Shown in pieces: positions 6,896 to 36,314 of a stretch of DNA of 64,000 bases (within the stretch, counting starts at the first letter, position 1; each line of letters begins with the position of its first letter). The notes under the pieces are model-generated. The model did not search any database, was not told where the DNA came from, and was given only the letters and a program-made list of their open reading frames with translations. The stretch is from an uncultured Methanosarcinales archaeon. Its GTDB lineage: Archaea > Nanobdellota > Nanobdellia > Woesearchaeales > DSVV01. The stretch is taken from contig CAYVNN010000004.1 in NCBI GenBank assembly GCA_964453185.1, forward strand, positions 128,706 to 192,705. Reading direction: 5' to 3'. The position numbers and the translations under genes were made by a program.

Positions 6896-7056
6896 TATAA
6901 TAATACCACAGCGGCTCTGGTACAAGGCAAAAAACAATGCTTGTATCGTATATATAATGCCGACTTCATCGACATTATAAGACATTGACTGTGTCAAGTA
7001 TCCTGACATAATATGATATAAAATTTTATAGTGAGCCAAGGCAGTGGTATTATTGC
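6896..7056 (+). repeat. Structured intergenic repeat family copy E1 (composite: also contains the promoter dual-hairpin module)
   Basis: AAUAAUACCAC-CAGCGGCUCUG ... AUAGUGAGCCAAGGCAG-GUGGUAUUAUU. The terminal stems are perfectly complementary. The interior carries tatatataatgccgacttcatcgacattataagac. Confidence 0.6.
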
Positions 7057-7085
7057 TATTGAAAACGCTGTTTGAGGTGAATATT

Positions 7086-8270
7086 ATGAAAAAAAGTTTT
7101 GTTATTATGTTAATAAGTGTATTAGTTTTGGCTATGTTCTTAAGTGGATGTAAAGAAGAAAGTGCTGAAGATTGTTTAGCAGATTGTTTAAAAGAATCAC
7201 AAGATAAGGCAACATGTAATCAACAATGTGGAATGGAGATGCTTGAAAAGCCAACAACACCACAAAAAGAACTTCCTCCCAAAGAAACAACTGAACCTGA
7301 ACCAGAAGTTCCTGAGAAAGTTGAAATAGAATGTAGGATTAATTCAGATTGTGATCAAAAACAAATATGTGAAGAGAGTGAATGTGTAGATGTTGATTGT
7401 AGAGAAAGACCAGATTGTGATGATGGATATTATTGTGAAGAATATGTTTGTATTGAGATTCCAATGCAAGGACCAAGTGATGAAGTGATTGATGATTGGA
7501 CTGATAAGATAATGGATCTTGAAGATTTGTTTGATGATATTTATGAAGATGCAGAAGATCTTTATGATTATTTATCTGATTCAGGTATTGAAGATGATGA
7601 CACATATGAAGATTATGAAGAGGATATTGATGAATTACTTGATGAAATTCAGACATTATTAGATGAGATTGATGAAAAACAAGATAATTTGACTGCAGAA
7701 TTAGGTTATGTTGAAACTTATGCTGATTTAGCAGATGTTAGAGATGAATATAATAGTTATCTGGATGAAATATCTGAATATAGAGAAGATTTTGTTGATG
7801 AAATGACTGATCAATTAGATAATATTGATGAAGCAGTTGGAGATTTAGAATGTACAAGTGATGATGATTGTACTGATGAATTTTGTGTTGATAATGTTTG
7901 TGTTGAATGTGAATCAGATGATGATTGTGATTCTGGATTTAGTTGTGATTCATACAGTTGTGTAGAAGATGCAACTGAAACAAATTGTTCAGATAGCACA
8001 GATGATGATTCAGATGGTTACACTGATTGTGCAGATTCTGATTGTGACGGAGTGGATGACTGTGAATACGATGAAGAGCTAACATGCGATGACAGTGTAG
8101 ATAATGATTCAGATGGTTATACTGATTGTGCAGATGAAGACTGTGATGGAGCAGATGATTGTGAATATGGTACAGAAGCAACATGTGATGACAGTATAGA
8201 CAATGATTCAGATGGAGATACTGATTGTGATGATTCAGACTGTGAGTCAGATACAAATTGTAGCTCATAA
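7086..8270 (+). CDS. Secreted/lipoprotein-like acidic Cys-rich protein with thrombospondin-type-3-like Asp-rich repeats
   Basis: MKKSFVIMLISVLVLAMFLSGC signal with a lipobox-like LSGC. SD gaggtga lies 6 nt upstream. The track start at 7044 overlaps the repeat stem and is probably wrong. Three or more tandem repeats CxDSxDNDSDGYTDCADxDCDGxDDCEY fit a DxDxDG calcium-binding pattern. Confidence 0.65.
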   Translation: MKKSFVIMLISVLVLAMFLSGCKEESAEDCLADCLKESQDKATCNQQCGMEMLEKPTTPQKELPPKETTEPEPEVPEKVEIECRINSDCDQKQICEESECVDVDCRERPDCDDGYYCEEYVCIEIPMQGPSDEVIDDWTDKIMDLEDLFDDIYEDAEDLYDYLSDSGIEDDDTYEDYEEDIDELLDEIQTLLDEIDEKQDNLTAELGYVETYADLADVRDEYNSYLDEISEYREDFVDEMTDQLDNIDEAVGDLECTSDDDCTDEFCVDNVCVECESDDDCDSGFSCDSYSCVEDATETNCSDSTDDDSDGYTDCADSDCDGVDDCEYDEELTCDDSVDNDSDGYTDCADEDCDGADDCEYGTEATCDDSIDNDSDGDTDCDDSDCESDTNCSS

Positions 8271-8300
8271 GTAATTAATTTCTTTTTTTCTTTATTTTTT
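8271..8300 (+). terminator. Oligo-T tract (archaeal intrinsic terminator) after the 7086 gene
   Basis: ttcttttttt ctttattttt directly after the stop codon. Confidence 0.4.
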
Positions 8301-8317
8301 ACAAAAGATTTATATAT
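8297..8317 (+). promoter_or_regulatory. BRE/TATA promoter TTTTACAAAAGATTTATATAT
   Basis: Identical extended motif to 2661 and 56703. About 50 nt upstream of the start at 8365. Confidence 0.55.
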
Positions 8318-8364
8318 TTTAAATATAAAAATTCTATTATAATTAAAACTTGAGGTGTTTATTC

Positions 8365-10191
8365 ATGAACGATAAATTTAAGAAATTTATGGTGTTTAAA
8401 AGTTTTTCAAACTTTATAAACAATAAAAAGGTATTAGTTTCTGTATTGATTATAATTAGTTTAATGTTTTTAATGGGACAGGTTAGTTGTAGTCCTATGT
8501 CTTTAATATGTACTTCTGATGAAGAAGGTGGAACACAATGTGATGATGGTTATGTTTATGAATGTGTGTTTGAATCAGGTACATATGTATGGGAATCAAC
8601 TGGTTCAACATGTGAATATGATACTGAATCTGATTGTACAAATTCAACAGATGACGACGACGACGGTTATACTGATTGTGCAGATCCTGACTGTGATGCA
8701 TTAACTGGTCCAAGTGGAGAAACCTGTGAATATGGTGCAGAAACAACATGTACTGATACATATGATAATGATGCAGATGGTTCTGCAGATTGTGATGATA
8801 CTGATTGTAGTACTGATAGTAGTTGTTGTACTGCAACAGAAACTACTGAAGCGACATGTGATGATTCAGTAGATAATGATTGTGATGGTACTACTGATTG
8901 TTCAGATAGTGATTGTTCAGCTGTTGATGTATGTTTAAGTGCAGAATGTACATTAGATTCCGAATGTGAAACATTATATGGAACTGGTTATATTTGTAAT
9001 ACTTCAGGTTATTGTGAATTAAGTACAACAGAGGATAATACAACAAATACAACAACTGAAGATTGTACCAATGGAGTAGATGATGATAATGATAGTTTAG
9101 TTGATTGTAATGATACAACTGATTGTCCATGTGATTCAGGATATAGTTGTAATACAACAAGCGCATTGTGTGAATTAGATTCAACTACAACTACAGAAAA
9201 TTGTACTAATTCAACAGATGATGATGGAGATGGAGATATAGATTGTGCTGATTCTGATTGTAATGCGTCAACTGGTTCAAGTGGAGAAACATGTGAATAT
9301 GGAACAGAGTTAACATGTAATGATGGTTATGATAATGATGGTGATGATTTAATTGATTGTTTTGACGATGATTGTAGTAGTTATACTACTTGTGATCTGA
9401 TCAATGCTTTTGCTAATTATGAAGCAGTAAGTACTGATCCTGATAATAGTATTTTATCATGTGATGCTGCATGTGCAGAAGAAGGATTGATTTGTGTACA
9501 AACAGAAGCATATAAGGATACAAGTTCTTCTTATGATGCTACTGGTTTGTTAGGATCAAAAAATTTTAATTTGAATTGTAGTTATGAAGCTGAACATGGT
9601 TATACTTATAGATGTAAATGTGTTGATTTAAGTAGTTATTCAGATCTTGCAACAACACTTTCAGGTCATAGTTTATATGCTACTAATTCAAGTTGTAATT
9701 ATGTTTGTGGAGCTAATTCAAAATTATGTGTTCATGCAGAAAAGGCTAGAATGAATGATAGTATTTATGATTATACTGGTGTTACAAGTAGTTGTTCATC
9801 ATCAGGATCAACTAAAGTAACCATGGTTGATCTTCCGTTAATAACTGGTGCAGCGGTTGTAAATGATAGTGACTCACCAATTCCAGAAGCAGAAAAGATG
9901 GATACAACTTCACATAATTATACAAAGCATTGTAGTTGTGTAGATGAACTTTCAGATTATTCTGAGTTTTTAACTCTATTGAATGATTATGATTATGATC
10001 TTACAGATCCTAGTAATGCTGATGAAGATACTTGTGATGAGGTATGTAATGATATGGATAAATTCTGTATAGGGGTTGAAGCATATACCGATAGTAGCAA
10101 TATAACATTTAGTTTTACTGGTGCATTGGGTTATAGGTCTAGAACTTGTGATTATGAATCATCAACTATAAATAGATGCAAGTGTATCTAA
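8365..10191 (+). CDS. Large secreted acidic Cys-rich surface protein: TSP3-like repeats plus a triplicated C-terminal ~75-aa six-Cys module
   Basis: Start MNDKF... follows SD gaggtg; the track start at 8350 is less likely. Signal/TM segment VLVSVLIIISLMFLMGQVSC. Repeats such as CTNSTDDDDDGYTDCADPDCD. Three C-terminal modules ending ...YTYRCKCV / NRCKCI. Paralog of the 10303 ORF. Confidence 0.65.
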   Translation: MNDKFKKFMVFKSFSNFINNKKVLVSVLIIISLMFLMGQVSCSPMSLICTSDEEGGTQCDDGYVYECVFESGTYVWESTGSTCEYDTESDCTNSTDDDDDGYTDCADPDCDALTGPSGETCEYGAETTCTDTYDNDADGSADCDDTDCSTDSSCCTATETTEATCDDSVDNDCDGTTDCSDSDCSAVDVCLSAECTLDSECETLYGTGYICNTSGYCELSTTEDNTTNTTTEDCTNGVDDDNDSLVDCNDTTDCPCDSGYSCNTTSALCELDSTTTTENCTNSTDDDGDGDIDCADSDCNASTGSSGETCEYGTELTCNDGYDNDGDDLIDCFDDDCSSYTTCDLINAFANYEAVSTDPDNSILSCDAACAEEGLICVQTEAYKDTSSSYDATGLLGSKNFNLNCSYEAEHGYTYRCKCVDLSSYSDLATTLSGHSLYATNSSCNYVCGANSKLCVHAEKARMNDSIYDYTGVTSSCSSSGSTKVTMVDLPLITGAAVVNDSDSPIPEAEKMDTTSHNYTKHCSCVDELSDYSEFLTLLNDYDYDLTDPSNADEDTCDEVCNDMDKFCIGVEAYTDSSNITFSFTGALGYRSRTCDYESSTINRCKCI

Positions 10192-10211
10192 TTTTTTCTT
10201 TTATTTTTCTT

Positions 10212-10230
10212 TTTTACAAAAGTTTTAAAT
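10212..10230 (+). promoter_or_regulatory. BRE/TATA-like promoter TTTTTACAAAAGTTTTAAATAG
   Basis: Same TTTTTACAAAAG leader as the sibling promoters, with a degenerate TATA. Confidence 0.4.
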
Positions 10231-10302
10231 AGTATAATATGTGTAAATTATATTTAAATAGTCATAATTATATATTAAATAAAAACTTTGAGGTGTTTAG
10301 AT

Positions 10303-12318
10303 ATGGATAAAAAGATTGTAATTTCTATTTTAGTTATAATTAGTTTAATGTTTTTAATGGGACAAGTGGGTTGTACAACTCCTTCGTTTTCATTGATTTG
10401 TACAGGTGATCAGGAAGGAGAAACTGATTGTTTAAGTGGGTATACATATGAATGTTCATTTGATGCATTTGGTAATTATGTATGGGAATCAACTGGTTCA
10501 ACATGTGAAGCATTTGAGAATGAAACTTTAGATTTAAGTGTTGCAGATGTTGATTTTGATCCTGTAGATCCTATTATTAGTGAAAATATAAGTGTATGGG
10601 CTAATATTACTAATGATGGTAATACTTCTGTTACATATGATGAAATGACAATTGCTTTATATGATATTACTTCAACATCAACTTTATTACAAGAATTAAT
10701 TGTATCTGATCAAACAGGAACAGGAGATTTTGCTTCAGGTGAATCTGTCTTAGTAACATTTGATGTATTTAGTTATAGTGCAAATGGTACATATGAATTA
10801 CAAGTTTACTTAGATCCAACAAATCAACTTGGAGAAGCAATCAGGAGTGATAATTCATACAGATATATTTATGTTACAGTTGGAGATGGAGTGAGTGATA
10901 ATACAACAACTGTTATTGAAACTTGTAGTGATGGAATACAAAATCAAGATGAAACTGGTGTTGATTGTGGAGGAAGCGTTTGTAGTGCATGTACAACTAG
11001 TACAAGTGCAGATCTTGGATCATTTAATGTGACTGATGTAACAAATCTTGCTTCATCAGATCCAACAGCAATTGAAAATAAATTGTATATATACACAAAT
11101 GAAAGTACATCAACAATTGGTAATCTTGATTCGTCTAATGTGTATTCTGATTATGATACACATAATCCTAGTTCAGCATCACCATTGGTGTTCGGTGTTT
11201 CTTATCTTGGTGATTCTAGTCAACAAATTGTTTTAGTTCAAGCAGATGTTGGAAATCTTTATGTTTTTTTACCTGACATGGTTTATTCATCTGGTACATT
11301 AAAATTATTTGTTGCAGAGAATGGTTCAACATATTATGCAGATGATGCACATGATGGTTCAGGAACAGCTTTAGGTGTTGAAGAAGCATTAGTTTCAGAT
11401 CATTTAGCAAGACAGGCAGAACAATCATATGAATGTTATAATGATGCATTTTGTGAAGCATTGTATGGAACTACTTATGATTGTAATACTACTAGTTATG
11501 TCTGTGAACCAGAAATAGTAGGTCCAGAGAATTGTACAAATTTAGTTGATGATGATAGTGATTTATTAGTTGATTGTGATGATAGTGATTGTAACAGTGA
11601 ATGTTTAGAGGGAGTTTATAGTACATATATGGTTTCTAATACTGACCCAAGTAACTCTTCGTTAAACTCATGTAATGAGGTTTGTGATAATTTGGGAGGA
11701 TTAACTTGTATGCATGTTGAAACCTATGTTGATAATTCTGGTGCTTATACAGATGGTACTGGTTTATTGGGTGGTGGAAATAGAGATTTAAATTGTAGTT
11801 TTGAACCTTCCTATGATTATACATATAGATGTGGGTGTTTAGAATTAAGTAGTTATTCTAATTTAAGTGTAGATACTTCAAATTTTGAATTAAAACAAGC
11901 AAGTACTTCTAGATCATGTGATGAAAGATGTGCAGATGTTGGAATGATATGTACACACGCAGAAATGGATAAATATGATGGTAATCTCTTAGATTATTCT
12001 GGTGTTATTATTAATTGTTCAGTAGTTGATACTGAATATAATAAACATTGTAAATGTGTTCAAGAAACAACAGGTTATGAGGATTTTTTAACTTTGTTAA
12101 ATGGTTATAGTGTTGTTGTTTCTGATCCAAATAACACTAGTATGAATTCATGTGATGAAGCATGTACAACAATTGGAAAAGAGTGTATTGGTGTTGAGAA
12201 TTATTTATCAACTTCTGGTGTGGTTATGAGTGAGACTGGTTTAGTTTACTATGCATCGTCACATCCAGATTATTGCTCTATGTCTTATTATTATTACTTT
12301 AATTGTAAGTGCATCTAA
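10303..12318 (+). CDS. Large secreted Cys-rich surface protein with a CARDB-like domain, a CSDGIQNQDETGVDCGG motif and the triplicated C-terminal six-Cys module
   Basis: Start MDKKIVIS... after SD gaggtg. The N-terminus is conserved with the 8365 protein (…GYTYECSF…VWESTGSTCE). The CARDB-like segment is DLSVADVDFDPVDP...GEAIRSDNSYRYIYV. The C-terminal 3x module ends FNCKCI. Confidence 0.65.
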   Translation: MDKKIVISILVIISLMFLMGQVGCTTPSFSLICTGDQEGETDCLSGYTYECSFDAFGNYVWESTGSTCEAFENETLDLSVADVDFDPVDPIISENISVWANITNDGNTSVTYDEMTIALYDITSTSTLLQELIVSDQTGTGDFASGESVLVTFDVFSYSANGTYELQVYLDPTNQLGEAIRSDNSYRYIYVTVGDGVSDNTTTVIETCSDGIQNQDETGVDCGGSVCSACTTSTSADLGSFNVTDVTNLASSDPTAIENKLYIYTNESTSTIGNLDSSNVYSDYDTHNPSSASPLVFGVSYLGDSSQQIVLVQADVGNLYVFLPDMVYSSGTLKLFVAENGSTYYADDAHDGSGTALGVEEALVSDHLARQAEQSYECYNDAFCEALYGTTYDCNTTSYVCEPEIVGPENCTNLVDDDSDLLVDCDDSDCNSECLEGVYSTYMVSNTDPSNSSLNSCNEVCDNLGGLTCMHVETYVDNSGAYTDGTGLLGGGNRDLNCSFEPSYDYTYRCGCLELSSYSNLSVDTSNFELKQASTSRSCDERCADVGMICTHAEMDKYDGNLLDYSGVIINCSVVDTEYNKHCKCVQETTGYEDFLTLLNGYSVVVSDPNNTSMNSCDEACTTIGKECIGVENYLSTSGVVMSETGLVYYASSHPDYCSMSYYYYFNCKCI

Positions 12319-15745: not shown

Positions 15746-16512
15746 GTGATAATGACAAAGAACATTTATTGAAATTTCTCAATAAAAAGATAAGGTTTGA
15801 TGGAAGGAAATTTGACCAATTTAGAGATGTTAATATTGAATATGACATTTCAGCTAATGCAGAAGGTTCAGCAAAGATTCAAATTGGTGAGACTGTTGTT
15901 GTTGCTGGTGTTAAAATGTTAGTTGGTGCACCGTTTCCAGATAGACCTGATGAAGGAGCAATTATGGTAAATGCTGAACTTTTACCTTTATCAAGTCCTG
16001 ATTTTGAGTCAGGTCCTCCAAGTATTGATGCAATTGAGTTAGCAAGAGTTGTTGACAGAGGAATTAGGGAAAGTAAGGCAGTAGATCTTAAGAAATTATG
16101 CATTAAGAAAGGGGAAACATGTTGGATTGTTTCAATTGATATTTGTACCTTAAATGTTGCAGGTAATTTATTTGATGCATCTACATTAGCAGCAATGGCT
16201 GCATTGACAAAAGCAAAGTTTCCAAAGTATGAGGACGGAACTGTTGACTATAAAGAACATACTGATAAGGGATTGGATTTAGAAAAAGTTCCAATTGGTG
16301 TAACTGTTCTGAAAATTGGAGATGCGCTTTTGGTTGATCCATTAAATGAAGAAGAAATTCATTTAGATGCAAGATTAACAATAACATCAACAAAAGATGG
16401 TACTATCTGTGCCTTACAGAAAGGTGGATCTGAAACATTGTCTTTGGATGATATTAAGTCAATGGTTGAACTTGCATTAAAGAAATCAAGTGAATTAAGA
16501 AAAAAATTATAA
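15742..16512 (+). CDS. rrp42: Exosome subunit Rrp42 (RNase PH-like, non-catalytic)
   Basis: RFDGRKFDQFRDVNIE..., a second RNase PH-like ORF directly after rrp41. Confidence 0.8.
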   Translation: MSDNDKEHLLKFLNKKIRFDGRKFDQFRDVNIEYDISANAEGSAKIQIGETVVVAGVKMLVGAPFPDRPDEGAIMVNAELLPLSSPDFESGPPSIDAIELARVVDRGIRESKAVDLKKLCIKKGETCWIVSIDICTLNVAGNLFDASTLAAMAALTKAKFPKYEDGTVDYKEHTDKGLDLEKVPIGVTVLKIGDALLVDPLNEEEIHLDARLTITSTKDGTICALQKGGSETLSLDDIKSMVELALKKSSELRKKL

Positions 16513-17493: not shown

Positions 17494-17721
17494 ATGGAAA
17501 CATCAAGACCATTAGATGCCTTAAACAAGGCTAGAAATAAAAGAGTAATTGTTGAACTTAAGAACGGTAAACAAATTGCAGGAGAATTAAAAGCATTTGA
17601 TATTCATATTAATGTGGTATTAGATAATGCCGAAGAAAGAGCAGACGGTGAAGTTAAAAGAAAGATGGGAACTATCTTTTTAAGGGGAGATACAATTATT
17701 ATAATTTCACCAGCAGAATAA
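17494..17721 (+). CDS. Sm-like archaeal protein (SmAP/LSm)
   Basis: 75 aa. PLDALNKARNKRVIVELKNGKQIAGELKAFDIHINVVLDNAEE matches the Sm1/Sm2 motif layout. Confidence 0.85.
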   Translation: METSRPLDALNKARNKRVIVELKNGKQIAGELKAFDIHINVVLDNAEERADGEVKRKMGTIFLRGDTIIIISPAE

Positions 17722-17813
17722 ATTTAAATTATTTATTCATTGTTTATTTTCATATGTTGATTTTAAATTAAAAGAGTTGAAATGATTAAAAATTATGTTA
17801 TTAGGTGGTATTA

Positions 17814-23202: not shown

Positions 23203-23240
23203 TGAAAGAATTTTTTCTTTCTTTTTTCTTTTTTTTTTGA
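23203..23240 (+). terminator. Long oligo-T terminator after the S-layer gene
   Basis: ctgaaagaattttttctttcttttttcttttttttttg. Confidence 0.45.
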
Positions 23241-23284
23241 TAACAAAAACTAATTCTTAGAAATTTAATCATTTTTTATATTTG

Positions 23285-23425
23285 ATATTGAGCCAATGCT
23301 GTGATTTCTATAAGCAATAGTAGCACAGCGGCTCTGCCACTAAGGATAATTATAAGTACGAACCGTGTTCTGACGTCATTCTATAGTATAGTTTGATAGT
23401 GAGCCAAGGCGGTGCTACTATTGTT
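23285..23425 (+). repeat. Structured intergenic repeat family copy E2
   Basis: AAUAGUAGCAC-AGCGGCUCUG ... GAUAGUGAGCCAAGGCG-GUGCUACUAUU with perfectly complementary ends. A degenerate extra 3' core, tgagccaatgctgtg, sits at 23290. Confidence 0.6.
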
Positions 23426-23448
23426 ATTTTAATTGTTAATGTTTAACC

Positions 23449-24654: not shown

Positions 24655-24748
24655 TATTGTTGTATTTACATTGACCTTTATAAATGTAATTGTCTCTTGA
24701 TTACTGTAATGAATAATTTTATATAGCTTTTTTATATCCTAAATTGAT

Positions 24749-25516
24749 ATGGAGGGGGAAAATTCACAGCAGGTTAATATTAGTATTACATATGAGACTC
24801 TTTTTGAGATGATTAGGTTAGAGAAAACTAAGAATGATTTACAGAAGTTGAGTCCTACTTTTTTTGCTGATTTTATTCAATATTTTAAAGAAAAAAATGC
24901 AATATTAAGAAGAAAGGAACAGGATTCTGACTTGTTTAATGCAGAAGAAATTAGAAAATTAAGGACCCAGATTGAGAATATTATTAAATTGTTTAATGAA
25001 TTATATACTAGAAGAGAAAGAAAGATTGTTGATATGGCATTGAATAAGGTTAAGACTAATTCTGATCAAATTAACTTGTCTACTCTTTTGAAAGAAGAAA
25101 GGATTTTTTATGATATGTTAGTTGAAAGATTAAATTTACAAAGAAAAGAAGTCTTGAATAGAGTTGTTACTCTTAAAGAACCAGATGTTAGAAGACCAAT
25201 TGTTAATAATGTTGTAGAGAATGAGGAAAAGAAAATTGTTGTTGATCAAGAAAAAGAAGTAGTTATTAATCAAGAAGTTCAAAATACAGTTTCTCAGAAT
25301 ACTGTTACTCAACAAGAAAAAATAGTTGAGAAGTTAGAAACTGATAAGAAGGAATCAGAAAAATTAGTTAGATTTATTAGTGCGATTCCTAAATTTTTAG
25401 GTCCTGAATTAGAAGTATTTGGACCTTTTTTTGAGGAAGATATGGTTACATTACCGACAAAGATTGCTGATATATTAATTAAAAAAGGAAGAGCAGAAGA
25501 AATAACTATGGCTTAA
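24749..25516 (+). CDS. GINS complex subunit (Gins51-like)
   Basis: Helical A-domain (YETLFEMIRLEKTKNDLQKLSPTFFADFIQYF). The C-terminal B-domain PKFLGPELEVFGPFFEEDMVTLPTKIADILIKKGRAEEI matches the Gins51 YGPF...LP...A.IL...G.A..I pattern. Confidence 0.55.
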   Translation: MEGENSQQVNISITYETLFEMIRLEKTKNDLQKLSPTFFADFIQYFKEKNAILRRKEQDSDLFNAEEIRKLRTQIENIIKLFNELYTRRERKIVDMALNKVKTNSDQINLSTLLKEERIFYDMLVERLNLQRKEVLNRVVTLKEPDVRRPIVNNVVENEEKKIVVDQEKEVVINQEVQNTVSQNTVTQQEKIVEKLETDKKESEKLVRFISAIPKFLGPELEVFGPFFEEDMVTLPTKIADILIKKGRAEEITMA

Positions 25517-25518
25517 TT

Positions 25519-25630
25519 GTTATTAGCACTACAGCGGCTCTGGTACGATGTTAATTATGAAGTACGTATCTTATCTTTACGCTATTATAAATTAAATAAG
25601 ATAGTGAGCCAAGGCGGTAATGCTAATTTA
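25519..25630 (+). repeat. Structured intergenic repeat family copy E3
   Basis: UUAUUAGCACUA-CAGCGGCUCUGGUAC ... GAUAGUGAGCCAAGGCGG-UAAUGCUAAU. Sits between convergent gene ends. Confidence 0.6.
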
Positions 25631-27214
25631 TTATTTAGTTATATTGTAAATATATATTGAATATCCTATATTATCTATTGGTTCATGTTCTTTGATCCAA
25701 TCAATACATCCTTCTTGTGTGTTTGTTAAGTCTTGTAAAAAGTTTACACTTATTGCAATTAATCCTTCTCCATCATAACAAGGGATTTGTTCATAATTAT
25801 TAATTCCTCTTAGTTCTGGTGGTTCATGTGTAAATACTGATAATTTAATTGATTCGTTTTCTAGGTTATGTTCTGAGACCCATTCACCTAATCCCTTTAG
25901 ATCTTGGCCCCATGCAATATTTGAATCAAGTAAGTAATTATATCCTTGTTCTGGTCCACCTGTTGCCACATTGAAATATGCAAGATAATGTGGATAGATT
26001 AATATGTTAGATAATAAGTAACATATTCCAATGATTATTAAAAATATGTAAAAATATTTTTTATAGTTAATATCTATTTTTATGTTTATTATTTTACTTA
26101 CAAATACAAATATGAAAGGAAATATTGGAAGAATATGTCTTAAACCTATGTTTATATTGTTGAGCATAAATGCAATAAGGTATAATACAATAGGAATGAT
26201 TATGAATAATTCATTTTTAATACTTATGTCTTTAATTTTTTTAAAGATTGTTAGGGTTATCGTCGACAATATTAATAGTATTGTTGGAATTGGTGTTTTG
26301 AATAAGAATGCTAATGGGAAATAATACCACCAGCCTTGTGTAGAATGCATACCCATTAAAAATGAAGCATGTCCTTGTGTAGAATGGTTTATAACAAAGT
26401 TTAGTCCTTCAAAATAATAATGAAATTCTTTAAAACCATATGTTAATGAGAGGATGAATAAACCAATTAGTCCTATGATTATAATTAATATGAACATGTT
26501 AATTGAATATTTTGTTAGTTTATTTTTATCAAAGTTTTTGTCTTTTGTCTTTAGGTATATGTGTGTAAAAAATAATATTCCTATGATTGGAATTAAGAAT
26601 ATCCCTGTAAATTTTGCTGAGCATGCTAAGCCTAAGAAAATACCTGTTTTAATTAAATTTGATTTTGTTCTTTTTTTACAAAATTTCCAAAAATAATATA
26701 CTGTAATGAATAGGAATGCTGTTATTCCCATATCTGTTTGAACAATTCTTGAATGGGTAAGTATGTTTGGACTAAATATGTATAAAAATAAAGCAATAAA
26801 TCCTGCTTTTATTCCATATAATTCTTTTGACCATTTAAAGACATAGAATCCAAGGAGGAGTGCTGTTAAGACAATAGGAATTCTACTCCAGAATAATATT
26901 TGATCTGTATTATTGTTTGTTTCAAATAAAAATTCTTTTCCAAAGTTCCATTCATCTGTGTTCTTCCAGTATTGGCTATTTTTATTAAAGTTTAAGTCGA
27001 GAAATAATAATGGAATTCCTCCTGATAATTTCATTAATGGTGGATGTTCTGGATTCATTCTATAATCAAATGTTTTCCAATAAGAATATCCAGCAGGAAT
27101 ATGTGCTGTTTCATCAACTGTTGTTGATTTTTGTGCCATACTAGATGTTGCTAAGATAAACATTAATACTAACATTAATGCAACAATTATTTTAGTATAG
27201 GCCTTTCCAATCAT
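25631..27214 (-). CDS. Dol-P-sugar-dependent glycosyltransferase, GT39/GT83 (PMT/ArnT-like) family
   Basis: DETAHIPAGYSYWKTFDYRMNPEHPPLMKL is the DE...HPPL signature of ArnT/PMT_2 transferases. About 12 TM helices. Confidence 0.7.
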   Translation of the reverse strand: MIGKAYTKIIVALMLVLMFILATSSMAQKSTTVDETAHIPAGYSYWKTFDYRMNPEHPPLMKLSGGIPLLFLDLNFNKNSQYWKNTDEWNFGKEFLFETNNNTDQILFWSRIPIVLTALLLGFYVFKWSKELYGIKAGFIALFLYIFSPNILTHSRIVQTDMGITAFLFITVYYFWKFCKKRTKSNLIKTGIFLGLACSAKFTGIFLIPIIGILFFTHIYLKTKDKNFDKNKLTKYSINMFILIIIIGLIGLFILSLTYGFKEFHYYFEGLNFVINHSTQGHASFLMGMHSTQGWWYYFPLAFLFKTPIPTILLILSTITLTIFKKIKDISIKNELFIIIPIVLYLIAFMLNNINIGLRHILPIFPFIFVFVSKIINIKIDINYKKYFYIFLIIIGICYLLSNILIYPHYLAYFNVATGGPEQGYNYLLDSNIAWGQDLKGLGEWVSEHNLENESIKLSVFTHEPPELRGINNYEQIPCYDGEGLIAISVNFLQDLTNTQEGCIDWIKEHEPIDNIGYSIYIYNITK

Positions 27215-27911
27215 TGACTTTCACCTTAAGTAAATCTAAGAACATGCTAATTGAATCTTTTATTGGATCTACTTTACTTCCTTCATCATTTATCCAAACA
27301 ACAGGGAGTTCTTTTATATTTAATTTATATTTTCTTGCAATATATAATATCTCGACGTCAAATGCAAATCTTTCCATTGTTTGTTTTTCAAATATTTTTT
27401 TTGCTGCTTCTTTTTTAAATAATTTAAATCCACATTGTGTATCTTTTATTCCTTTAACAGCAATAAGTTTTACTAGTAATGGAAAAATTTTACCAAGTGT
27501 ACTTCTTATTAAAGGTTGTTTTATTTTTATATCTGATTCTTTCATATTTCTAGATGCAATAATTATGTCATAATTATTTATATATTTAAGAAAATTATCT
27601 AATTCTTCTATTGGTGTTGAGTTGTCTGCATCTGTGAATAATATTAAATCTTTTTTAGCTTCAAGCATACCTCTTCTTACAGTATAACCTTTGCCTCTGT
27701 TAGGTATGTTTTTTAGAATTGTTAAGTTGTTTTCTTTTATCTGTGAAACTGTTTGTATTGTTTTATCTTTACTTCCATCGTCAACAACAACAATCTCATA
27801 ATCAAATCCTCTTTTTTTAAGATATTTTAATATTAATTGGATTGTTTTATTTATTCTCTTTTCTTCATTATATGCAGGAATTACAATTGATATGCTTGTT
27901 TTTTTCACCAT
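27192..27911 (-). CDS. GT2 dolichyl-phosphate sugar synthase (DPM1/ArnC-like)
   Basis: ISIVIPAYNEEKRINKTIQ...YEIVVVDDGSKDKT. Overlaps the start of the downstream GT39 gene, an arnC/arnT-like pair. Confidence 0.75.
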   Translation of the reverse strand: MVKKTSISIVIPAYNEEKRINKTIQLILKYLKKRGFDYEIVVVDDGSKDKTIQTVSQIKENNLTILKNIPNRGKGYTVRRGMLEAKKDLILFTDADNSTPIEELDNFLKYINNYDIIIASRNMKESDIKIKQPLIRSTLGKIFPLLVKLIAVKGIKDTQCGFKLFKKEAAKKIFEKQTMERFAFDVEILYIARKYKLNIKELPVVWINDEGSKVDPIKDSISMFLDLLKVKVNDWKGLY

Positions 27912-28039
27912 TTTATTATCTAAATATTCTTTTTTATTTAAATATTGTTTTATGATTATTCTTTACATATTTAAATATCCGATAATTTTATAAATACTTC
28001 ATTTTAAATATGATTATCATAATAATGGGTGTTTAAACA

Positions 28040-28348
28040 ATGAAATTACCAAAAACAACTAAAAGGCTTTGTCCATACTGTAAGAAGCACACAGAGCATA
28101 AGACTACTCAAACAAAGAGGAAAAAAGCGTCCTCATTATCATTGGGGTCTAAATACAGGGCTAAAAAGCGAGGATTAGCTAGGGGAACCGGTAATCTTGG
28201 AAGATATTCAAAACCAGCTATTACTAAGTTTAAATTAACTGGTAAGAAGCAGTCAAAGAAGACTGATTTAAGGTATGAATGTAGTGTGTGTAAAAAGACT
28301 CATGTTCAGAAAACTGGAATACGGGCAAAAAGAGTAGAATTAGTTTAA
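28040..28348 (+). CDS. rpl44e: Ribosomal protein L44e (L36a family)
   Basis: CPYCKKHTEHKT...GKKQSKKTDLRYECSVCKK, a basic 102-aa zinc-ribbon protein. Confidence 0.8.
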   Translation: MKLPKTTKRLCPYCKKHTEHKTTQTKRKKASSLSLGSKYRAKKRGLARGTGNLGRYSKPAITKFKLTGKKQSKKTDLRYECSVCKKTHVQKTGIRAKRVELV

Positions 28349-28650
28349 TTTGATCCTGCAGAACCTTTTTTATTTATTCTATCTTTGTATTTTTGTGTTA
28401 CAATTTTTAGTGCTTCTTCTAGATCTACATTAAAGTAATTAGCTATTGTTATTAATGAATAAAAGGTATCTCCTATTTCTAATCTTATCTTTTCATTTGG
28501 TATTAGTTTTTTTCTCCCATAATTACTCATTTTAAGAACTTCTTTTGAGATCTCTCCTGTTTCAGATACTAAGTCTAAAACTCGATGTTCAATAGGTGAT
28601 TCAAGATTGTTTTCTTTGCAAAATTCTTTTATTTGTTTTTGTATCTTTTT
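28345..28650 (-). CDS. MazG-like nucleoside-triphosphate pyrophosphohydrolase
   Basis: …EHRVLDLVSETGEISKEVLK…EIGDTFYSLITIANYFNVDLEEALKIVTQKYKDR has the MazG EExxE / EIGD helical motifs. Probable start MKKIQKQ; the track ORF extends further upstream. Confidence 0.5.
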   Translation of the reverse strand, partial: KKIQKQIKEFCKENNLESPIEHRVLDLVSETGEISKEVLKMSNYGRKKLIPNEKIRLEIGDTFYSLITIANYFNVDLEEALKIVTQKYKDRINKKGSAGSN

Positions 28651-28652
28651 CA

Positions 28653-29552
28653 TTATATCAATAATCCCCACAATTGACTTCCTATTAATAACACTATTAA
28701 ATATGCAGCTAAGAAGCTTGGTACAAATGGTATGCCATATTTGACCCATATTTTGTTTATCTTTTTTTGTTTTTTAAGTTTTAGAAGTTGTTGTATTTGT
28801 TCTTTTTCTATACCTAAATCTTTTGGTCCACAAATATATTTATTGTTAATTTTTACTTCTTTTGCTATCCAGTCACCTTCTGTAACTTTTTCTATAGCTA
28901 TTTGTTTTATCATACAAACTTTTTCAACAACTTTGACCATTATTGATAAGTAAAATGTAATAACTGTTACTGTTATTAATCCAAAGATTAATATTAAGGT
29001 ATTTGTGTTTTTTATAAAAAATAATGATAATAAACCAATGACTACAATTATTAACATAATTATTCTAATGTATATTATTTTCTTTTGTGAGAGGATCTTC
29101 TTAGCTTCTTTTAAAACTTGTTTCCATTTAATTAATGCAGATACAATTGTCCATATTAATCCATACAATGATCCTGCAACCAGACTAAAAATAAAGAATA
29201 ATATCAATGTAGGAGGATTAGATAACCAATGTTGTATTATGTTTGTTAAAGGCCATGTTAATTCTAAGCCAATCAATGCTCCAAGTCCCATTAAAATCTT
29301 ACTATCTCCTCCACCCCATTGTCCTGTGTAAAACATTATGTATGCAATTATGAACATTAATGTGAAACCAGCAAGACCTTCAAAGAAATATATCCATTCA
29401 TTTGTGATAATGCTTTGTGCTAAATGAAGTGTAATCCCAATGAATATTAATGAATAGTTTAAGAAATTAGGTACCTCTCTTGTTTTAATGTCTGTTAGAC
29501 TTGCAATGATTAAGGCAACCAATGCAATGATTGTAATTATTATGTTTAACAT
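28653..29552 (-). CDS. Type IV prepilin/preflagellin (archaellin) peptidase, A24 family (PibD/FlaK-like)
   Basis: Polytopic membrane protein with a first Asp motif (ASLTDIKTREVPN) and a second motif WGGGDSKILMGLGALIGL (GGGDVKL-type). Confidence 0.6.
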   Translation of the reverse strand: MLNIIITIIALVALIIASLTDIKTREVPNFLNYSLIFIGITLHLAQSIITNEWIYFFEGLAGFTLMFIIAYIMFYTGQWGGGDSKILMGLGALIGLELTWPLTNIIQHWLSNPPTLILFFIFSLVAGSLYGLIWTIVSALIKWKQVLKEAKKILSQKKIIYIRIIMLIIVVIGLLSLFFIKNTNTLILIFGLITVTVITFYLSIMVKVVEKVCMIKQIAIEKVTEGDWIAKEVKINNKYICGPKDLGIEKEQIQQLLKLKKQKKINKIWVKYGIPFVPSFLAAYLIVLLIGSQLWGLLI

Positions 29553-29584
29553 TTTCTCTTTTTTTTAATGATGGTTCTTTTGTA

Positions 29585-29695
29585 ATAGTACCGCCGCCTT
29601 GGCTCACTATATTATTTATCTTATTATGACGTAAGGATACGGTACGTACATTGTAATATTTCATAGTACCAGAGCCGCTGCGGTACTATTATTGT
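29585..29695 (-). repeat. Structured intergenic repeat family copy E4 (inverted orientation)
   Basis: Minus-strand reading: AAUAGUACCGC-AGCGGCUCUGGUAC ... AUAGUGAGCCAAGGCGGCG-GUACUAUU. Confidence 0.6.
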
Positions 29696-29697
29696 AA

Positions 29698-30363
29698 TCA
29701 TAAAAATCCTAATGCTTCATCTATTGTTACAGCTTCTACTCCTGTGGTAGCTTCTCCAATAATGATGCCATTTGAATTAGTTAGTATTCCTGCTTTTACA
29801 TAAGGACTACCAAAGTTAACTGTTGCTCTTATTGGTTTTAGTTTTAGTAATTTTTTGACTTGAGCAATGTTTTCTTCTGTAGCACATGAATGAATTACAA
29901 CACCTTTTGAATTATGTGCACAACATGCACCAACAACTTCAATGTCTGCAATCATTCCAGGGTTTAATGGAACATTAAGTGCTGTTCTTATCTCTTTCTT
30001 TGTTTTTGCACTAAAATCTGGATTAACTAAACAACCATTATCATTACAAAGAATATTATTTCCAAATGCAGTTAGTTTTGTGTCAATTATTTTATATTCA
30101 ATATTTAATTTTTCTATTACTTTTAATTCATTGTCTTCAATTATATTTGGTAATAATAAACAATTATTATTTCCTGTACATAATGCACCAATTAATGAGG
30201 TTTTTCCAATTGTAATTTGGTGAACAGGAACCTTTAGTATTTTTCCTATCTTTTGAGCTAATTTTTTTTGTACAGTTTTACCTAATAAACAGTATGAATC
30301 AGTACAATAACCGTATAGCCCTATATTAGGGTTTTTGTTTATGTTTGTTTTTAATATATGCAT
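29698..30363 (-). CDS. eif6: Translation initiation factor 6 (aIF6)
   Basis: 221 aa with five-fold pseudo-repeats and …NPNIGLYGYCTDSYCLL… typical of eIF6. Confidence 0.8.
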   Translation of the reverse strand: MHILKTNINKNPNIGLYGYCTDSYCLLGKTVQKKLAQKIGKILKVPVHQITIGKTSLIGALCTGNNNCLLLPNIIEDNELKVIEKLNIEYKIIDTKLTAFGNNILCNDNGCLVNPDFSAKTKKEIRTALNVPLNPGMIADIEVVGACCAHNSKGVVIHSCATEENIAQVKKLLKLKPIRATVNFGSPYVKAGILTNSNGIIIGEATTGVEAVTIDEALGFL

Positions 30364-30421
30364 TTTATTTAAAATTCCTCACACAATTTTTAATTCCAAA
30401 AAACATATAGTATGTTTTTTG

Positions 30422-31198
30422 TTACTGTAAACTCGCCTCATCAACTTCTATGTTTTCATTTTCTAACATTGATTTTTTCATTAGAATATTAATCTCACTA
30501 AGATGTTCTTCTTGTTGTAATGCCAATTTTTGTTGGTTTTCTAAATGTAATAAAGGAATAAAAGTATAAATTTTTTCTTCTTTTGAATTTGATTTTAATA
30601 ATTGGTTGAATGTCATCTTTTTTTCTTTTTCGTTTAGGAAGTATGATCTTACTTCATTGTATAAATTTTTAATAACATTTGTAATATCAATTTCTTTTTT
30701 AGGAATTTCAACATGGATTTCTTCTCTATGGTATTTTCTTCTTTTTTTAACATTCAATGCTTTTTGTAACGCATCAACAAGATCATAAACAGACACTTTT
30801 CTTTTTCTTGGTTGTGGGGTTCTTGGTATTAGTCTGTATTTATCATCATTTGGATCAAATGTTCTTCTTTCATCATAATCTCCTGCTTCAAGTTCATCAT
30901 AAAAGTCATCTCCCATGTCTTCAGACATTGCAATTAATCGATCTAATTGACTTAAATCTTCTCCAACTAGTTTATTTGATTTTAATCTTAACATGATAGC
31001 AGCTGCTAAGATGATCTTTCCTGAAATCTTAAAATCCATATCTTTCAATTGTCTAATCATTTCTAGGAATCTTTGAGATAGTTGTGAAATATCAATGTCC
31101 CATGGATCCATCTGTTCAGATCTAACTGCCTCATGGATAATAGACTGCCATGTAACATCATCATCCTTAAACAACATCTCAAATATTTTTTCTTGCAT
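30422..31198 (-). CDS. scpA: Segregation and condensation protein A (ScpA, kleisin)
   Basis: N-terminal MDPWDIDISQLSQRFLEMIRQL…ISGKIILAAAIMLRLKSNKL and C-terminal …MTFNQLL…IYTFIPLLHL… match the ScpA N- and C-terminal winged-helix regions. Confidence 0.6.
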   Translation of the reverse strand: MQEKIFEMLFKDDDVTWQSIIHEAVRSEQMDPWDIDISQLSQRFLEMIRQLKDMDFKISGKIILAAAIMLRLKSNKLVGEDLSQLDRLIAMSEDMGDDFYDELEAGDYDERRTFDPNDDKYRLIPRTPQPRKRKVSVYDLVDALQKALNVKKRRKYHREEIHVEIPKKEIDITNVIKNLYNEVRSYFLNEKEKKMTFNQLLKSNSKEEKIYTFIPLLHLENQQKLALQQEEHLSEINILMKKSMLENENIEVDEASLQ

Positions 31199-31386
31199 AC
31201 TTTAGAAAGGATTTATATATGTATATAAAGGTATCGGAGAGTAGTGTGTTAGGATAGAGATATGAGAATGAATGCACTGGGCAATAATGCGAAGCCACGC
31301 CATCTTTTAGGTAAGCTAAAAGCTGGATCAAAATCTATCGTAGTATCTCATATCTTCGATACTACTCAAATTCTAGAAATTAAATA

Positions 31387-32322: not shown

Positions 32323-32447
32323 ATTATTATATAGTAAGATGTTAGGATATATTAATCTTATGTTTAAATATGGTTTTGTCATCAAAATCTTTATAAATCA
32401 TATATAAACTTCTTTATGTTTAGGACTAAGTGACTTTATTTAATGTT

Positions 32448-32526
32448 TATATAAATAATGCCGACTCACAAGTTCATCGACATTATTAGACATTAAAAAA
32501 CAAATTTAATCGACTAAAGTCGATGA
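32448..32526 (+). promoter_or_regulatory. Promoter-proximal dual-hairpin module, copy M2 (upstream of tRNA-Ile)
   Basis: tatataaataatgccgactcacaagttcatcgacattattagac … aatcgactaaagtcgatg. Both hairpins are present. Confidence 0.45.
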
Positions 32527-32542
32527 AATTGCTTTATTTAAT

Positions 32543-32678
32543 GGGCCTGTAGCTTAGTCTGGTTGGAGCGCTGGTCTTATATGGCTTCGTTTCATACAAG
32601 AAATTGGCTCTGAGTGAGCCAGTGGTCGTGAGAGGTCATCTTTTAGATGATTCACGAATTCAAATCTCATCAGGCCCA
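32543..32678 (+). tRNA. tRNA-Ile (UAU) with two introns (37/38, 35 nt; 53/54, 26 nt)
   Basis: GGGCCUG-UA-GCUU-AGUCUGGUUG-GAGC-G-CUGGU-CUUAUA[35 nt]A-GCCAG-UGGUC-GUGAG[26 nt]UUCAAAU-CUCAU-CAGGCCC-A. All helices pair. An oligo-T follows. Confidence 0.65.
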
Positions 32679-32740: not shown

Positions 32741-32897
32741 GCTCCGTTGGTGTAGTCCGGCCAATCATCCAGGATTTTCGTGGCGATGAATCAAAGATTC
32801 ATGAAGTTTTCGCTTTTCGCCGAAAACATCCTGGGACTCGGGTTCGAATATCAAAAAAGGGTTAAAACCTATTGATTTGAAAGTCCCGGACGGAGCA
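32741..32897 (+). tRNA. tRNA-Glu (UUC) with two introns (37/38, ~47 nt; 60/61, 35 nt)
   Basis: GCUCCGU-UG-GUGUAGUCCGGCCAAUCAUC-CAGGA-UUUUCG[intron with CGAAAAC complement]A-UCCUG-GGAC-UCGGG-UUCGAAU[AUCAAAAAAGGGUUAAAACCUAUUGAUUUGAAAGU]CCCGG-ACGGAGC-A. Confidence 0.65.
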
Positions 32898-33024: not shown

Positions 33025-33164
33025 ATAGATTAATCTCTCTTTCTATTCTTATTATATTCAGTTAAATTTATATAACAGATGAAATTCTAATTACTTTTAT
33101 GCCAACGTGGCATACTCAAAAAAAGCAATTTTTTTGGTCGCCAAGTTGTCATTCATACATTCAT

Positions 33165-33329
33165 GCCAACGTGGCACAATCTGGTACTGCGCGGATTCTG
33201 TGATGAGCAGAAGCGTAAGCCTTGAGTGTCTAATCACTTAGGATCAGGTTAGCCCGTTTCCTCACGGATATCCCGGTTCAAATAACAAAAAGGTTCAAAC
33301 CTATTGTTTTGAAAGTCCGGGCGTTGGCG
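33165..33329 (+). tRNA. Intron-containing tRNA (isotype unresolved) with a 60/61 intron homologous to that of tRNA-Glu, plus an anticodon-region intron
   Basis: Acceptor GCCAACG/CGUUGGC with G73. D-arm UGGCACAAUCUGGUACUGC. T-arm CCCGG-UUCAAAU[AACAAAAAGGUUCAAACCUAUUGUUUUGAAAGU]CCGGG. An oligo-T follows. Confidence 0.5.
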
Positions 33330-33397
33330 TCATTTTTAAATCAATAGTATTTCTAGAAAAGAAAATTAAGAATATTAGTTAAGAATTAATTTATTCT

Positions 33398-35230: not shown

Positions 35231-35440
35231 CTATCTATCATTAATAGGTTATTGTATTTAAATTTATCTGGATATTTAATAATATTTAAACTCAAGGTAC
35301 TTCTAGCTTAGTAAAAATTAAATAGTTCAATTCCCTTACTTATGTAAACAAAAAAGAAATTCCTACACAGGTTTTAACCATTGGTTCTTTGTTGGGTTTT
35401 GGCGTCATTTTTTTGTATGTAATATTTACTTTATTAAAAT

Positions 35441-35548
35441 TATTAGTACCACAGCGGCTCTGATTCTAAGTGAAATAATAGTGACGCAACATATTTTATT
35501 GCGAATTAATGAGTTATTAGAAAAGGAGTCAAGGTGGTGGTACTAATA
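35441..35548 (+). repeat. Structured intergenic repeat family copy E5
   Basis: AUUAGUACCAC-AGCGGCUCUGAUUC ... GGAGUCAAGGUGG-UGGUACUAAU with a slightly degenerate 3' core. Confidence 0.55.
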
Positions 35549-35604
35549 ACTTTTTCCATATTTTTTTCAAAAGCTTTAATAAGTTCTAATTATTTAATTG
35601 TCTT

Positions 35605-36078
35605 ATGATAATATTAGAATATATCTTAATATCATTATTAGCTTTTTTAGGATTAATAATAGGGGCAATCCTATCTTTTATTGCACCTGAAGAATTAAAG
35701 CCATTAAAGAAGTATTTTAGATACTTCTATAAAGTTATTATTGCTTTGGTCTTGATTGTATTTATTGTTTTCAAAGGATTAAGTATTTTAACATCTGTTT
35801 TATTGTTATTATTATTTGCATTCTTATTATCAATTGAATCAATGAAACCTGTTATTTATTCAGTTATGCCTTTATTTCTTTATTCATTAGATAATAGACT
35901 TGTTTTGACTGAATCAATATTAGTTTTTATCTTAAGTATTGTTTTAGCAGCAGTGTTTATTGAACCTTTTGAAAAGAAACAACAGGTTAAGAATAAGTTA
36001 ATGGTATTAAGAAAATTATTATGTAAATATTATTACTATGTTTTTGTTGTAATTATTCTTGTTGTTTTAAAGATATAG
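35605..36078 (+). CDS. Hypothetical small polytopic membrane protein
   Basis: 157 aa, 4-5 hydrophobic helices, no motif. Confidence 0.4.
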   Translation: MIILEYILISLLAFLGLIIGAILSFIAPEELKPLKKYFRYFYKVIIALVLIVFIVFKGLSILTSVLLLLLFAFLLSIESMKPVIYSVMPLFLYSLDNRLVLTESILVFILSIVLAAVFIEPFEKKQQVKNKLMVLRKLLCKYYYYVFVVIILVVLKI

Positions 36079-36093
36079 AAGATTATGTCTTTT

Positions 36094-36205
36094 AATTATT
36101 AGCACCACAGCGGCTCTGATATTATGTAATATTATTATGTACATTCCGTATCCTTGCGCTGTTGTAAATTAATTTAGATAGTGAGCCAAGGTGGGTACTT
36201 AATAA
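36094..36205 (+). repeat. Structured intergenic repeat family copy E6a
   Basis: UUAUUAGCACCAC-AGCGGCUCUGAUAUU ... GAUAGUGAGCCAAGGUGG-GUACUUAAUAA. Confidence 0.6.
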
Positions 36206-36206
36206 G

Positions 36207-36314
36207 TAATAGTGCCATGGCGACTCTGATTCTATGTGTATATATCTGCTCGTTTCTTATCCTGACGCAATCGTTGTGTAATACGAAGGTGAGTCAAGGC
36301 GATGGCACTATTGC
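36207..36314 (+). repeat. Structured intergenic repeat family copy E6b (tandem to E6a, divergent subtype)
   Basis: AGUGCCAUGG-CGACUCUGAUUC ... GGUGAGUCAAGGCG-AUGGCACU. Confidence 0.55.

Follow-up and report, generated by a model that had tools for sequence, protein, structure and literature searches.

A family of ~115-nt intergenic palindromic repeats with covarying stems, possibly mobile, in a DPANN archaeon

Archaeal MITEs (miniature inverted-repeat transposable elements), such as the SM families of Sulfolobus, are recognisable deletion derivatives of known insertion sequences (IS), with which they share terminal inverted repeats (TIRs). Small palindromic intergenic repeats are also known from bacteria: ERIC (~127 bp), Correia (104-157 bp) and RUP (107 bp) elements are often co-transcribed at the 3ʹ ends of genes and sometimes affect mRNA stability (PMC3184786). 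In REPINs, compensatory hairpin changes have been documented in mobile DNA (PMC3116915). Here we describe a family of ~115-nt intergenic imperfect palindromes in a 64-kb stretch of DNA from an uncultivated archaeon of the DPANN group (hereafter the window). An earlier inspection of the letters (the sequence-only reading) had picked out seven of these elements. The repeat family is real and previously undescribed, although its kind, the small intergenic palindromic repeat, is already known. The elements may be non-autonomous mobile repeats.

The window contained seven full copies of the repeat, one 3ʹ half-copy and one short remnant. These nine places, all intergenic, lie within 36 kb, between 1.8 and 36.3 kb of the window (Table 1; copies are named after their first position). 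All seven elements of the sequence-only reading were recovered where it had put them and on the strands that it had given. The copies are about 110-120 nt long, with one of 160 nt. They are enriched in GC (32-40%) relative to the AT-rich genome (G+C of the window, 30%), and mean column identity between copies is 75%. Two shared cores had been described, and their counts were compared with those in shuffled sequence. The 5ʹ core, CAGCGGCTCTG, was found exactly six times, always within copies, while shuffles gave 1.6 matches at up to 2 mismatches. With up to 3 mismatches allowed, the 3ʹ core, AGTGAGCCAAGGCGG, had eight occurrences where 0.16 were expected, and the two cores 55-85 nt apart had four where 0.00 were expected.

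Covariance model R1, derived from six copies, gave scores of 79-124 bits to the seven full copies and of 22 bits (E = 0.003) to the half-copy. Besides reverse-strand echoes of the copies, R1 gave nothing else in the 64 kb at E < 0.8. No copy was present in the remaining 28 kb of the window, which holds the RNA-polymerase operon, 2-oxoacid:ferredoxin oxidoreductase subunits, succinyl-CoA ligase and other genes, nor inside the RNA-polymerase and exosome operons, and no further copies were found in the ~8 kb beyond the left window edge. On the right, the JGI contigs stop where the window does.

Some element boundaries were revised. The element at 6896-7056 is a copy, but its extra length is not intrinsic and comes from a 50-nt member of a second repeat family (6952-7001) that sits inside its hairpin loop. 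The element previously given as 23285-23425 does contain a copy, which is a full one starting at 23312 and preceded by a remnant of ~20 nt. The partial copy previously placed at 1787-1812 is present, but it is a 3ʹ half spanning about 1775-1860 on the minus strand, with the 5ʹ arm and the 5ʹ core lost. Copies 36094 and 36207 are arranged head-to-tail.

Table 1. Repeat copies, second-family repeats and hairpin look-alikes (window positions unless a relative is named).
Feature	Position	Strand	Score and state	Context
3ʹ half-copy	1775..1860	-	22 bits, E = 0.003; interior hairpin, 3ʹ core GTGAACCAAGGCAG and 3ʹ arm present	
Full copy with nested 50-nt insertion in hairpin loop	6896..7056	+	model hit 6892-7061, 78.9 bits, default filters, 53-nt loop insertion	neighbours: phosphoglucomutase gene (stop 6867) and Cys-rich surface-protein gene (ATG 7087)
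Decayed 3ʹ-arm remnant, ~20 nt, ATTGAGCCAATGCTGTG	23285..23305	+	3 mismatches to 3ʹ core	directly upstream of copy 23312
Full copy	23312..23427	+	117.8 bits	between convergent S-layer gene and radical-SAM gene
Full copy	25519..25630	+	124.1 bits	
Full copy	29585..29695	-	121 bits	between co-directional eIF-6 (stop 29698) and A24 prepilin peptidase gene (ATG 29552)
Full copy	35441..35548	+	107.1 bits	between divergent genes without assigned function (starts 35230(-), 35605(+))
Tandem-pair copy 1	36094..36205	+	79.3 bits, detected only with filters off; 3ʹ terminal arm damaged	
Tandem-pair copy 2	36207..36314	+	111.5 bits; core helix compensated (GACUC/GAGUC)	
Second palindromic repeat, nested in loop of copy 6896	6952-7001	+	50 nt; ATAATGCCGACT...CATCGACATTAT; repeat families D15 and I18	
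Second palindromic repeat	32447-32494	+		upstream of tRNA-Ile
Second palindromic repeat	56148-56206	+		upstream of open reading frame starting 56226
Second palindromic repeat	61899-61960	-		upstream of gene starting 61836(-)
Hairpin look-alike, relative L013 (CAYWPA010000004.1, eIF-6 60% identical)	4469-4579	+	GCTCTG-arm search	
Hairpin look-alike, relative L013 (CAYWPA010000004.1)	15901-16010	-	GCTCTG-arm search	

Each copy has inverted ends of about 20-25 nt, in which the outer 10-12 nt are copy-specific and only the subterminal cores are common to all; the ends read (A/T)ATAGTACC...GGTACTAT(T/A). Outermost is a terminal stem of 12-14 bp, A+T-rich at its base, whose sequence is copy-specific yet complementary. 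Inside this stem is a purine-purine mismatch (A.G in five copies, A.A in one and G.G in one), followed inward by two G-C pairs (GC/GC) and a 3-nt AAG bulge on the 3ʹ strand. The core helix GGCUC/GAGCC comes next and then, on the 5ʹ strand, UG with one or two further unpaired bases. CUCUG, GAG, CAAGG and the AAG bulge never vary across copies, and the core-to-core span is 80-82 nt. The interior of about 60 nt is variable and A+T-rich. It includes the internal segment, GUACGUACCGUAUCCUUACG, that several copies had been said to share, which is a hairpin of 4-5 bp with a conserved pyrimidine-rich UAUCC loop (consensus YCKUAUCCU). The loop is shared but the stem varies: by eye, the different stems still pair (ACGUA/UACGU, CGCAA/UUGCG, UGUCA/UGACA), while the fixed alignment has just 67% of cells paired and a single pair changed on both sides.

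In the modelled structure, 85% of cells were paired, compared with 28-48% when the partner column was slid. Both sides were changed in 11 of 25 modelled pairs, and none of 500 shuffles matched the observed pairing, the double changes or the covariation score. This result bore out the copy-specific compensatory changes that had been proposed for the terminal stem. The core helix was compensated once, in copy 36207. The outer ends had been said to be complementary always; in copy 36094 the 3ʹ arm is damaged by one deletion, one insertion and one mismatch.

The sequence-only reading took this covariation as the signature of a conserved RNA (or cruciform) secondary structure, but by itself it is not proof of an RNA gene, and folding energies show no clear preference for either strand. 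Summed over the seven copies, they were -249.7 kcal/mol for the sense strand and -234.0 kcal/mol for the antisense strand; the sense strand folded better in four of the seven, and the preference was small and inconsistent. The repeat family illustrates well that an invariant core enclosed by covarying stems is not enough, alone, to establish an RNA gene. A second possible fold of the consensus consists of two local palindromes, inverted to each other. In this alternative, the 5ʹ local hairpin had 75% of cells paired (25-48% in slid controls) and showed no copy-specific covariation, and the 3ʹ one had 69% paired only after a shift by one column. A pseudoknot between the loop (YCCUU) and the AAGG bulge could pair in all window copies, but AAGG is invariant, and the look-alikes of relative L013 described below gave it no support.

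The copies had been described as lying mostly between convergent genes. Four of them do, in three convergent gaps, but two full copies lie in two co-directional gaps, the half-copy in a third co-directional gap, and one copy in a divergent gap. Copy 25519 occupies the entire 114-nt gap between the stops of the convergent genes for Gins51 (25516) and a PMT-type glycosyltransferase (25631). Copy 29585 has the same sense as both genes that flank it. Orientation is informative only in the three co-directional cases, where it follows the gene sense in 3/3, too few to be meaningful. TATA-like boxes are found ~25-35 nt upstream of several copies and carry no weight in intergenic DNA of 70-75% A+T. 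Runs of T5 and T7 follow copy 35441, and a T6 run upstream of copy 23312 could terminate the S-layer transcript.

The nearest known relative (L011, with eIF-6 67% identical) is syntenic with the window from the S-layer gene to ScpA, and R1 detected no element in its syntenic 20 kb. When the block of window 20700-31200 was compared with L011 9200-18600, a pair of PMT-type and GT2 glycosyltransferase genes (25631-27911) was gained in the window, and three small open reading frames (ORFs) were lost or replaced in it. By our own count, elements are present at three of four junctions with differing gene content and at none of six conserved junctions (Fisher p ~0.03). The element-bearing junctions are those with ORF148 versus elements, with the PMT and GT2 insertion, and with ORF143 versus an element. 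An ORF without assigned function (35605-36078) is bracketed by copies in the same orientation. Being located where gene content departs from the nearest relative, the copies may mark or drive genome rearrangement.

The family had been said to resemble no described element, and Rfam agreed: at the gathering threshold the window gave only three tRNA hits and no family for the repeats, and at E <= 10 the region 35300-36400 gave only sub-threshold chance hits. The exact two-core pattern had no match in one genome per GTDB species or in JGI metagenomes, both of which evidently lack the source organism; applied to the window itself, the pattern does find copies. The exact cores were absent from IMG/VR as well. 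A relaxed core pattern had >120 matches there; the 37 inspected were GC-rich and without terminal stems and are therefore chance matches. A tighter pattern gave one chance match. R1 found nothing in 1.12 Mb around eIF-6 from 80 genomes of Woesearchaeota and Nanoarchaeota. The literature searched held nothing specific on intergenic repeats of DPANN archaea or Woesearchaeota, and no such repeats were reported there before for these groups.

Two hairpin look-alikes turned up in a more distant relative (L013; Table 1) on screening for GCTCTG that follows an arm with its complement 30-170 nt further downstream. They read stem-GC-GCUCUG...G(C/U)GC-U(G/U)G-GC-stem, with the parts in the same order as in the window family. 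Common to both are a 3-nt bulge on the 3ʹ strand beside GC/GC, then a helix beginning GCUC, and the core-to-core span is 80-81 nt in L013 against 80-82 nt in the window. Where window copies have the UAUCC-loop hairpin, one look-alike has the hairpin CGAC-UAUCU-GUCG. The two differ from each other by a compensated change of C-G to U-A in the stem, one contains three G.U pairs in the GCUCUG sense, and that sense gives the better fold in both. Each is located between divergent promoters. R1 scored them at only 6-7 bits, so that the resemblance is architectural and homology is not established; they may be distant homologues of the window family. The L013-type pattern had 23 matches in metagenomes, all of them chance matches in GC-rich bacterial coding sequence without arms.

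Another DPANN relative, isolate DeMMO3_27 (L168), has hairpins of its own, with perfect stems and lengths of 130-160 nt (3324-3481, 6997-7154 and 17607-17738). The latter two share the sequences GCCAGGCUACGCU and CCCCGUAGGGGG. An AAGGCG or GGCGG motif occurs close to an arm in each of the three. Hairpin repeats specific to single lineages may be common across Woesearchaeota.

We favour, with a probability of roughly 0.5, the reading that the elements are lineage-restricted, non-autonomous imperfect-palindrome repeats of ~115 bp, similar to MITEs, REPINs, ERIC and Correia elements, which were spread by a trans-acting enzyme that reads the core. A MITE-like mobile element was among the identities offered by the sequence-only reading. 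The enzyme would be encoded elsewhere in the genome and would recognise the folded core instead of a fixed terminal sequence, probably in single-stranded DNA, as HUH/Y1 transposases do. If the core is what is read, the terminal stem needs only to pair, which would explain its covariation. Inserted copies would be passively co-transcribed with their neighbours and fold in the RNA, with side effects on some genes at most, and copies that are not needed would erode.

Several observations are in line with such a mobile repeat. The elements are shorter than 300 bp, multicopy (seven full and two partial copies), non-coding and intergenic, as are MITEs. They form a decay series from intact copies through a damaged arm (36094) and a half-copy (1775-1860) to a remnant (23285). 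A tandem pair and a nested insertion are present, all types of intergenic gap are occupied, and the syntenic region of L011 is free of elements. Placement at synteny breaks, avoidance of core operons and the nearly equal stability of sense and antisense folds point in the same direction, as do the lack of R1 matches in the 80 relatives, the possible fold into two local palindromes, and the agreement in size and location with ERIC, Correia and RUP elements.

Other observations weigh against mobility. No transposase, integrase or RAYT-like gene was detected by Pfam on the ORFs of the window or in the ~8 kb beyond it, and neither the window nor its left extension encodes a reverse transcriptase. 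Target-site duplications, whose presence had been proposed as a check, were not consistent among the seven copies. TA stands at both ends in three (29585, 35441 and 36094), and the other copies have TA/TG, CA/TG or TA/TT; since TA...TA is itself palindromic and A+T-rich, it is not separable from an extension of the stem. No empty site was seen: all 17 other retrieved contigs of the source organism that overlap the window match it, and the 10 aligned to it (from JGI, ENA and Logan assemblies) are 99.995-100% identical. These contigs therefore come from one clonal population of an uncultivated DPANN archaeon. The syntenic region of L011 lacks elements but is too diverged for clean empty sites. 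The outermost termini vary between copies, unlike those of classical TIR-dependent MITEs. Moreover, copies as diverged as these (75% identity) retain invariant unpaired core nucleotides and the purine-purine mismatch, which would also fit a functional RNA or a protein-binding site. If the L013 family, at 60% eIF-6 identity, is homologous, the design is older than a recent burst.

These points bear on the alternatives. The elements could be paralogous genes for independently transcribed, trans-acting structured small RNAs, in which the core binds a protein and the UAUCC loop contacts a target. The unpaired core nucleotides that stay invariant between covarying helices would suit this reading, as would the mismatch and AAG bulge conserved in all copies, the G.U pairs that two copies have in the core on the sense strand, the better folding of the GCUCUG sense in four of seven window copies and both L013 copies, the GC enrichment, and possible conservation across genera if L013 is counted. 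Copies in divergent gaps cannot belong to untranslated regions (UTRs), and TATA-like boxes and the T5 and T7 runs could be signals of transcription, although they are weak in such A+T-rich DNA. However, no promoter or terminator is consistent across copies, folding energies prefer one strand only slightly and not in every copy, and Rfam has no match. The small-RNA family that had been suggested earlier is further weakened because the element is not kept at syntenic sites of the nearest relative, has no match in 1.1 Mb of relatives, and has copies that are decayed, truncated or insertion-bearing; we regard it as unlikely, if the least so of the alternatives. Somewhat less likely is a cis-acting RNA element in mRNA UTRs or intercistronic spacers, acting as a stabilising 3ʹ hairpin, a processing site or an aid to termination, roles demonstrated for some REP, ERIC and Correia copies. 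Six of the eight larger copies have their start 0-30 nt past the stop codon of a gene with the same sense, the three informative co-directional cases all follow the gene sense, and bacterial intergenic repeats of similar size are co-transcribed and affect mRNA stability (PMC3184786). On the other hand, the orientation statistic is just 3/3, the T6 run upstream of copy 23312 could end the S-layer transcript first, the same genes in L011 do without the element, and one copy in the window, like the two look-alikes of L013, is situated outside any mRNA, between divergent promoters. A dedicated terminator, another identity proposed at the outset, or a dedicated 3ʹ-UTR element is disfavoured because copies are also found between divergent promoters and within co-directional pairs. 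We judge similarly improbable a functional structured-nucleic-acid family of one branch of Woesearchaeota, whose asymmetric core of stem, GC, 3-nt bulge and (G)GCUCUG helix would be kept in at least two genera at a spacing of 80-82 nt while the rest drifts. It would take the form of a new class of protein-binding small RNA, or of the first archaeal REPIN-like system, with a domesticated single-strand transposase reading the folded core.

Two further alternatives appear much weaker. The integron attC sites are recombination hairpins of 57-141 nt with extrahelical bases and little sequence conservation, and have conserved terminal R''(RYYYAAC)/R'(GTTRRRY) boxes, one-directional cassette arrays and an adjacent intI. 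By analogy with them, the elements might be DNA-level recombination or protein-binding sites at the boundaries of gene cassettes. They form hairpins 110-120 nt in length, conserve a bulge on one strand and lie at junctions whose gene content differs from the relative; ORF 35605-36078 is flanked by copies in the same orientation, and the glycosyltransferase pair absent from the relative abuts copy 25519. The terminal boxes (RYYYAAC...GTTRRRY), the one-directional cassette array and the integrase are, however, all missing from the window, most of the neighbouring genes have housekeeping roles and occur in both orientations, and one copy points the opposite way from the rest, making this very improbable. 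Least probable, to the point of being hardly tenable, are intron-like RNAs excised by the archaeal splicing endonuclease at a bulge-helix-bulge (BHB) motif and related to the many tRNA introns of this genome. The bulges 3ʹ of the central helix on both strands have BHB topology, and the intron of tRNA-Ile(UAU) contains GGCTCTGAGTGAGCC, equivalent to the 5ʹ core fused to the 3ʹ core (0.00 expected in shuffles). The central helix is, however, 5 bp instead of 4, and the 5ʹ bulge is of 4 nt or an internal loop. A scanner that recovered clean BHBs for four tRNA introns of the window found none consistent across the elements. The link through GGCTCTGAGTGAGCC was also rejected, as the match is explained by the ordinary BHB of that intron (CUUA/UGAG helix, UGA bulge, GCCAG anticodon stem), and the L011 ortholog reads TGGCTTAGGATAGCCAG instead.

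The second repeat family, one copy of which is nested in copy 6896, is about 50-60 nt long and reads TATA(A/T)ATAATGCCGACT..loop..CATCGACATTAT(A/T)AGACATT, followed by a small hairpin and then AAGTATATATA. GTAT stands on either side of the nested insert (GTAT...GTAT), whereas a single (G/T)TAT occupies that loop position in the remaining main-family copies. The non-nested copies are located 30-60 nt upstream of their genes in the same sense and have TATA-like boxes inside. Second-family repeats may carry promoters.

The tRNA genes at 32543-32678, 32741-32897, 33160-33330, 43190-43300 and 43314-43454 each contain one or two BHB introns, which sit in the anticodon loop, the D loop and the T loop. 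ARAGORN reported only an intron-less tRNA-Gly, and Rfam three tRNAs. Similar introns occupy one T-loop position in three tRNAs (...TTCGAA/T...TTGAAAG/TCC..., with the slash at the junction), suggesting that introns spread between tRNA genes. The tRNA-Ile with anticodon UAU (32543-32678) has two introns and is conserved in L011 (7538-7672(-)). This anticodon is the AUA-decoding solution of Nanoarchaeota-like archaea without agmatidine synthase.

The host is a DPANN archaeon of Woesearchaeota/Nanoarchaeota type. The window encodes the archaeal markers eIF-6, Gins51, an archaeal A24 prepilin peptidase, an S-layer protein, an exosome operon and an RNA-polymerase operon. Named homologues of its eIF-6 carry Woesearchaeota or Nanoarchaeota annotation, and the closest known one, that of L011, is only 67% identical. 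Three neighbouring genes (7087-12318) encode secreted proteins of 33-38-residue Cys/Asp-rich repeats (C.D..D.D.DG..DC.D.DC) with similar signal-peptide regions (repeat families D1, D2, D4 and D17); a 676-aa protein of this cluster had no Pfam match. Adjoining the S-layer gene is a free-standing ORF (19612-20085) for a 157-aa LAGLIDADG homing-endonuclease-like protein, outside any intron or intein. In two contigs of the same organism (L001 and L003), a 157-residue product with a LAGLIDADG_3 Pfam hit was called at the matching position. In L011, a glycosyltransferase-TPR gene directly follows the S-layer gene, and no LAGLIDADG-like ORF was called there.

The genomes of DPANN archaea, a group known from metagenomes alone, are very small and compact. 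In the window, a 115-nt hairpin repeat occurs about every 5 kb over a span of 36 kb. Together with the second, nested family and the many tRNA introns, the repeats suggest that even reduced genomes carry small selfish elements that are active or were so recently. If the core is read by a dedicated protein, the family would offer a handle on a mobilisation or RNA-binding system in Woesearchaeota.

Compared with known systems, the elements share features with RNA motifs and with intergenic repeats. A kink-turn of Kt-7 or C/D type, as bound by L7Ae, is suggested by GGC-UCU-GA / GA-GCC in three of the seven copies; it was rejected because the GA.AG tandem is not conserved, the other four copies having GG or GC at 1b-2b and both strands of the L013 look-alikes lacking GA. 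Like a BHB intron, the element has two opposed bulges around a short G+C helix, but of a different helix length, as noted above. It resembles archaeal MITEs as a small non-autonomous repeat in archaeal intergenic DNA, but no parent IS is known for it. With ERIC, Correia (CREE, NEMIS) and RUP elements it has in common its size, its nature as an intergenic imperfect palindrome often just after genes, and variants with internal insertions. Those families differ in having conserved terminal inverted repeats and TA target duplications, whereas the termini vary here and TA is found at both ends in 3/7 copies, and there is no sequence similarity. The likeness to the bacterial REPINs, which are mobilised by RAYT/HUH Y1 transposases, has its own differences: the host is archaeal, no RAYT gene is present in the window and the ~8 kb beyond it, the conserved motifs are subterminal with a variable outermost stem, and the two cores are not simple inverted copies, given the 3-nt bulge and the mismatch. 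REPINs are nevertheless extragenic hairpins of ~100 nt with conserved motifs, a variable and compensated stem, tandem clusters and decayed singlets (PMC3116915), and the window consensus can likewise fold in the alternative 'clover' form of two inverted local palindromes.

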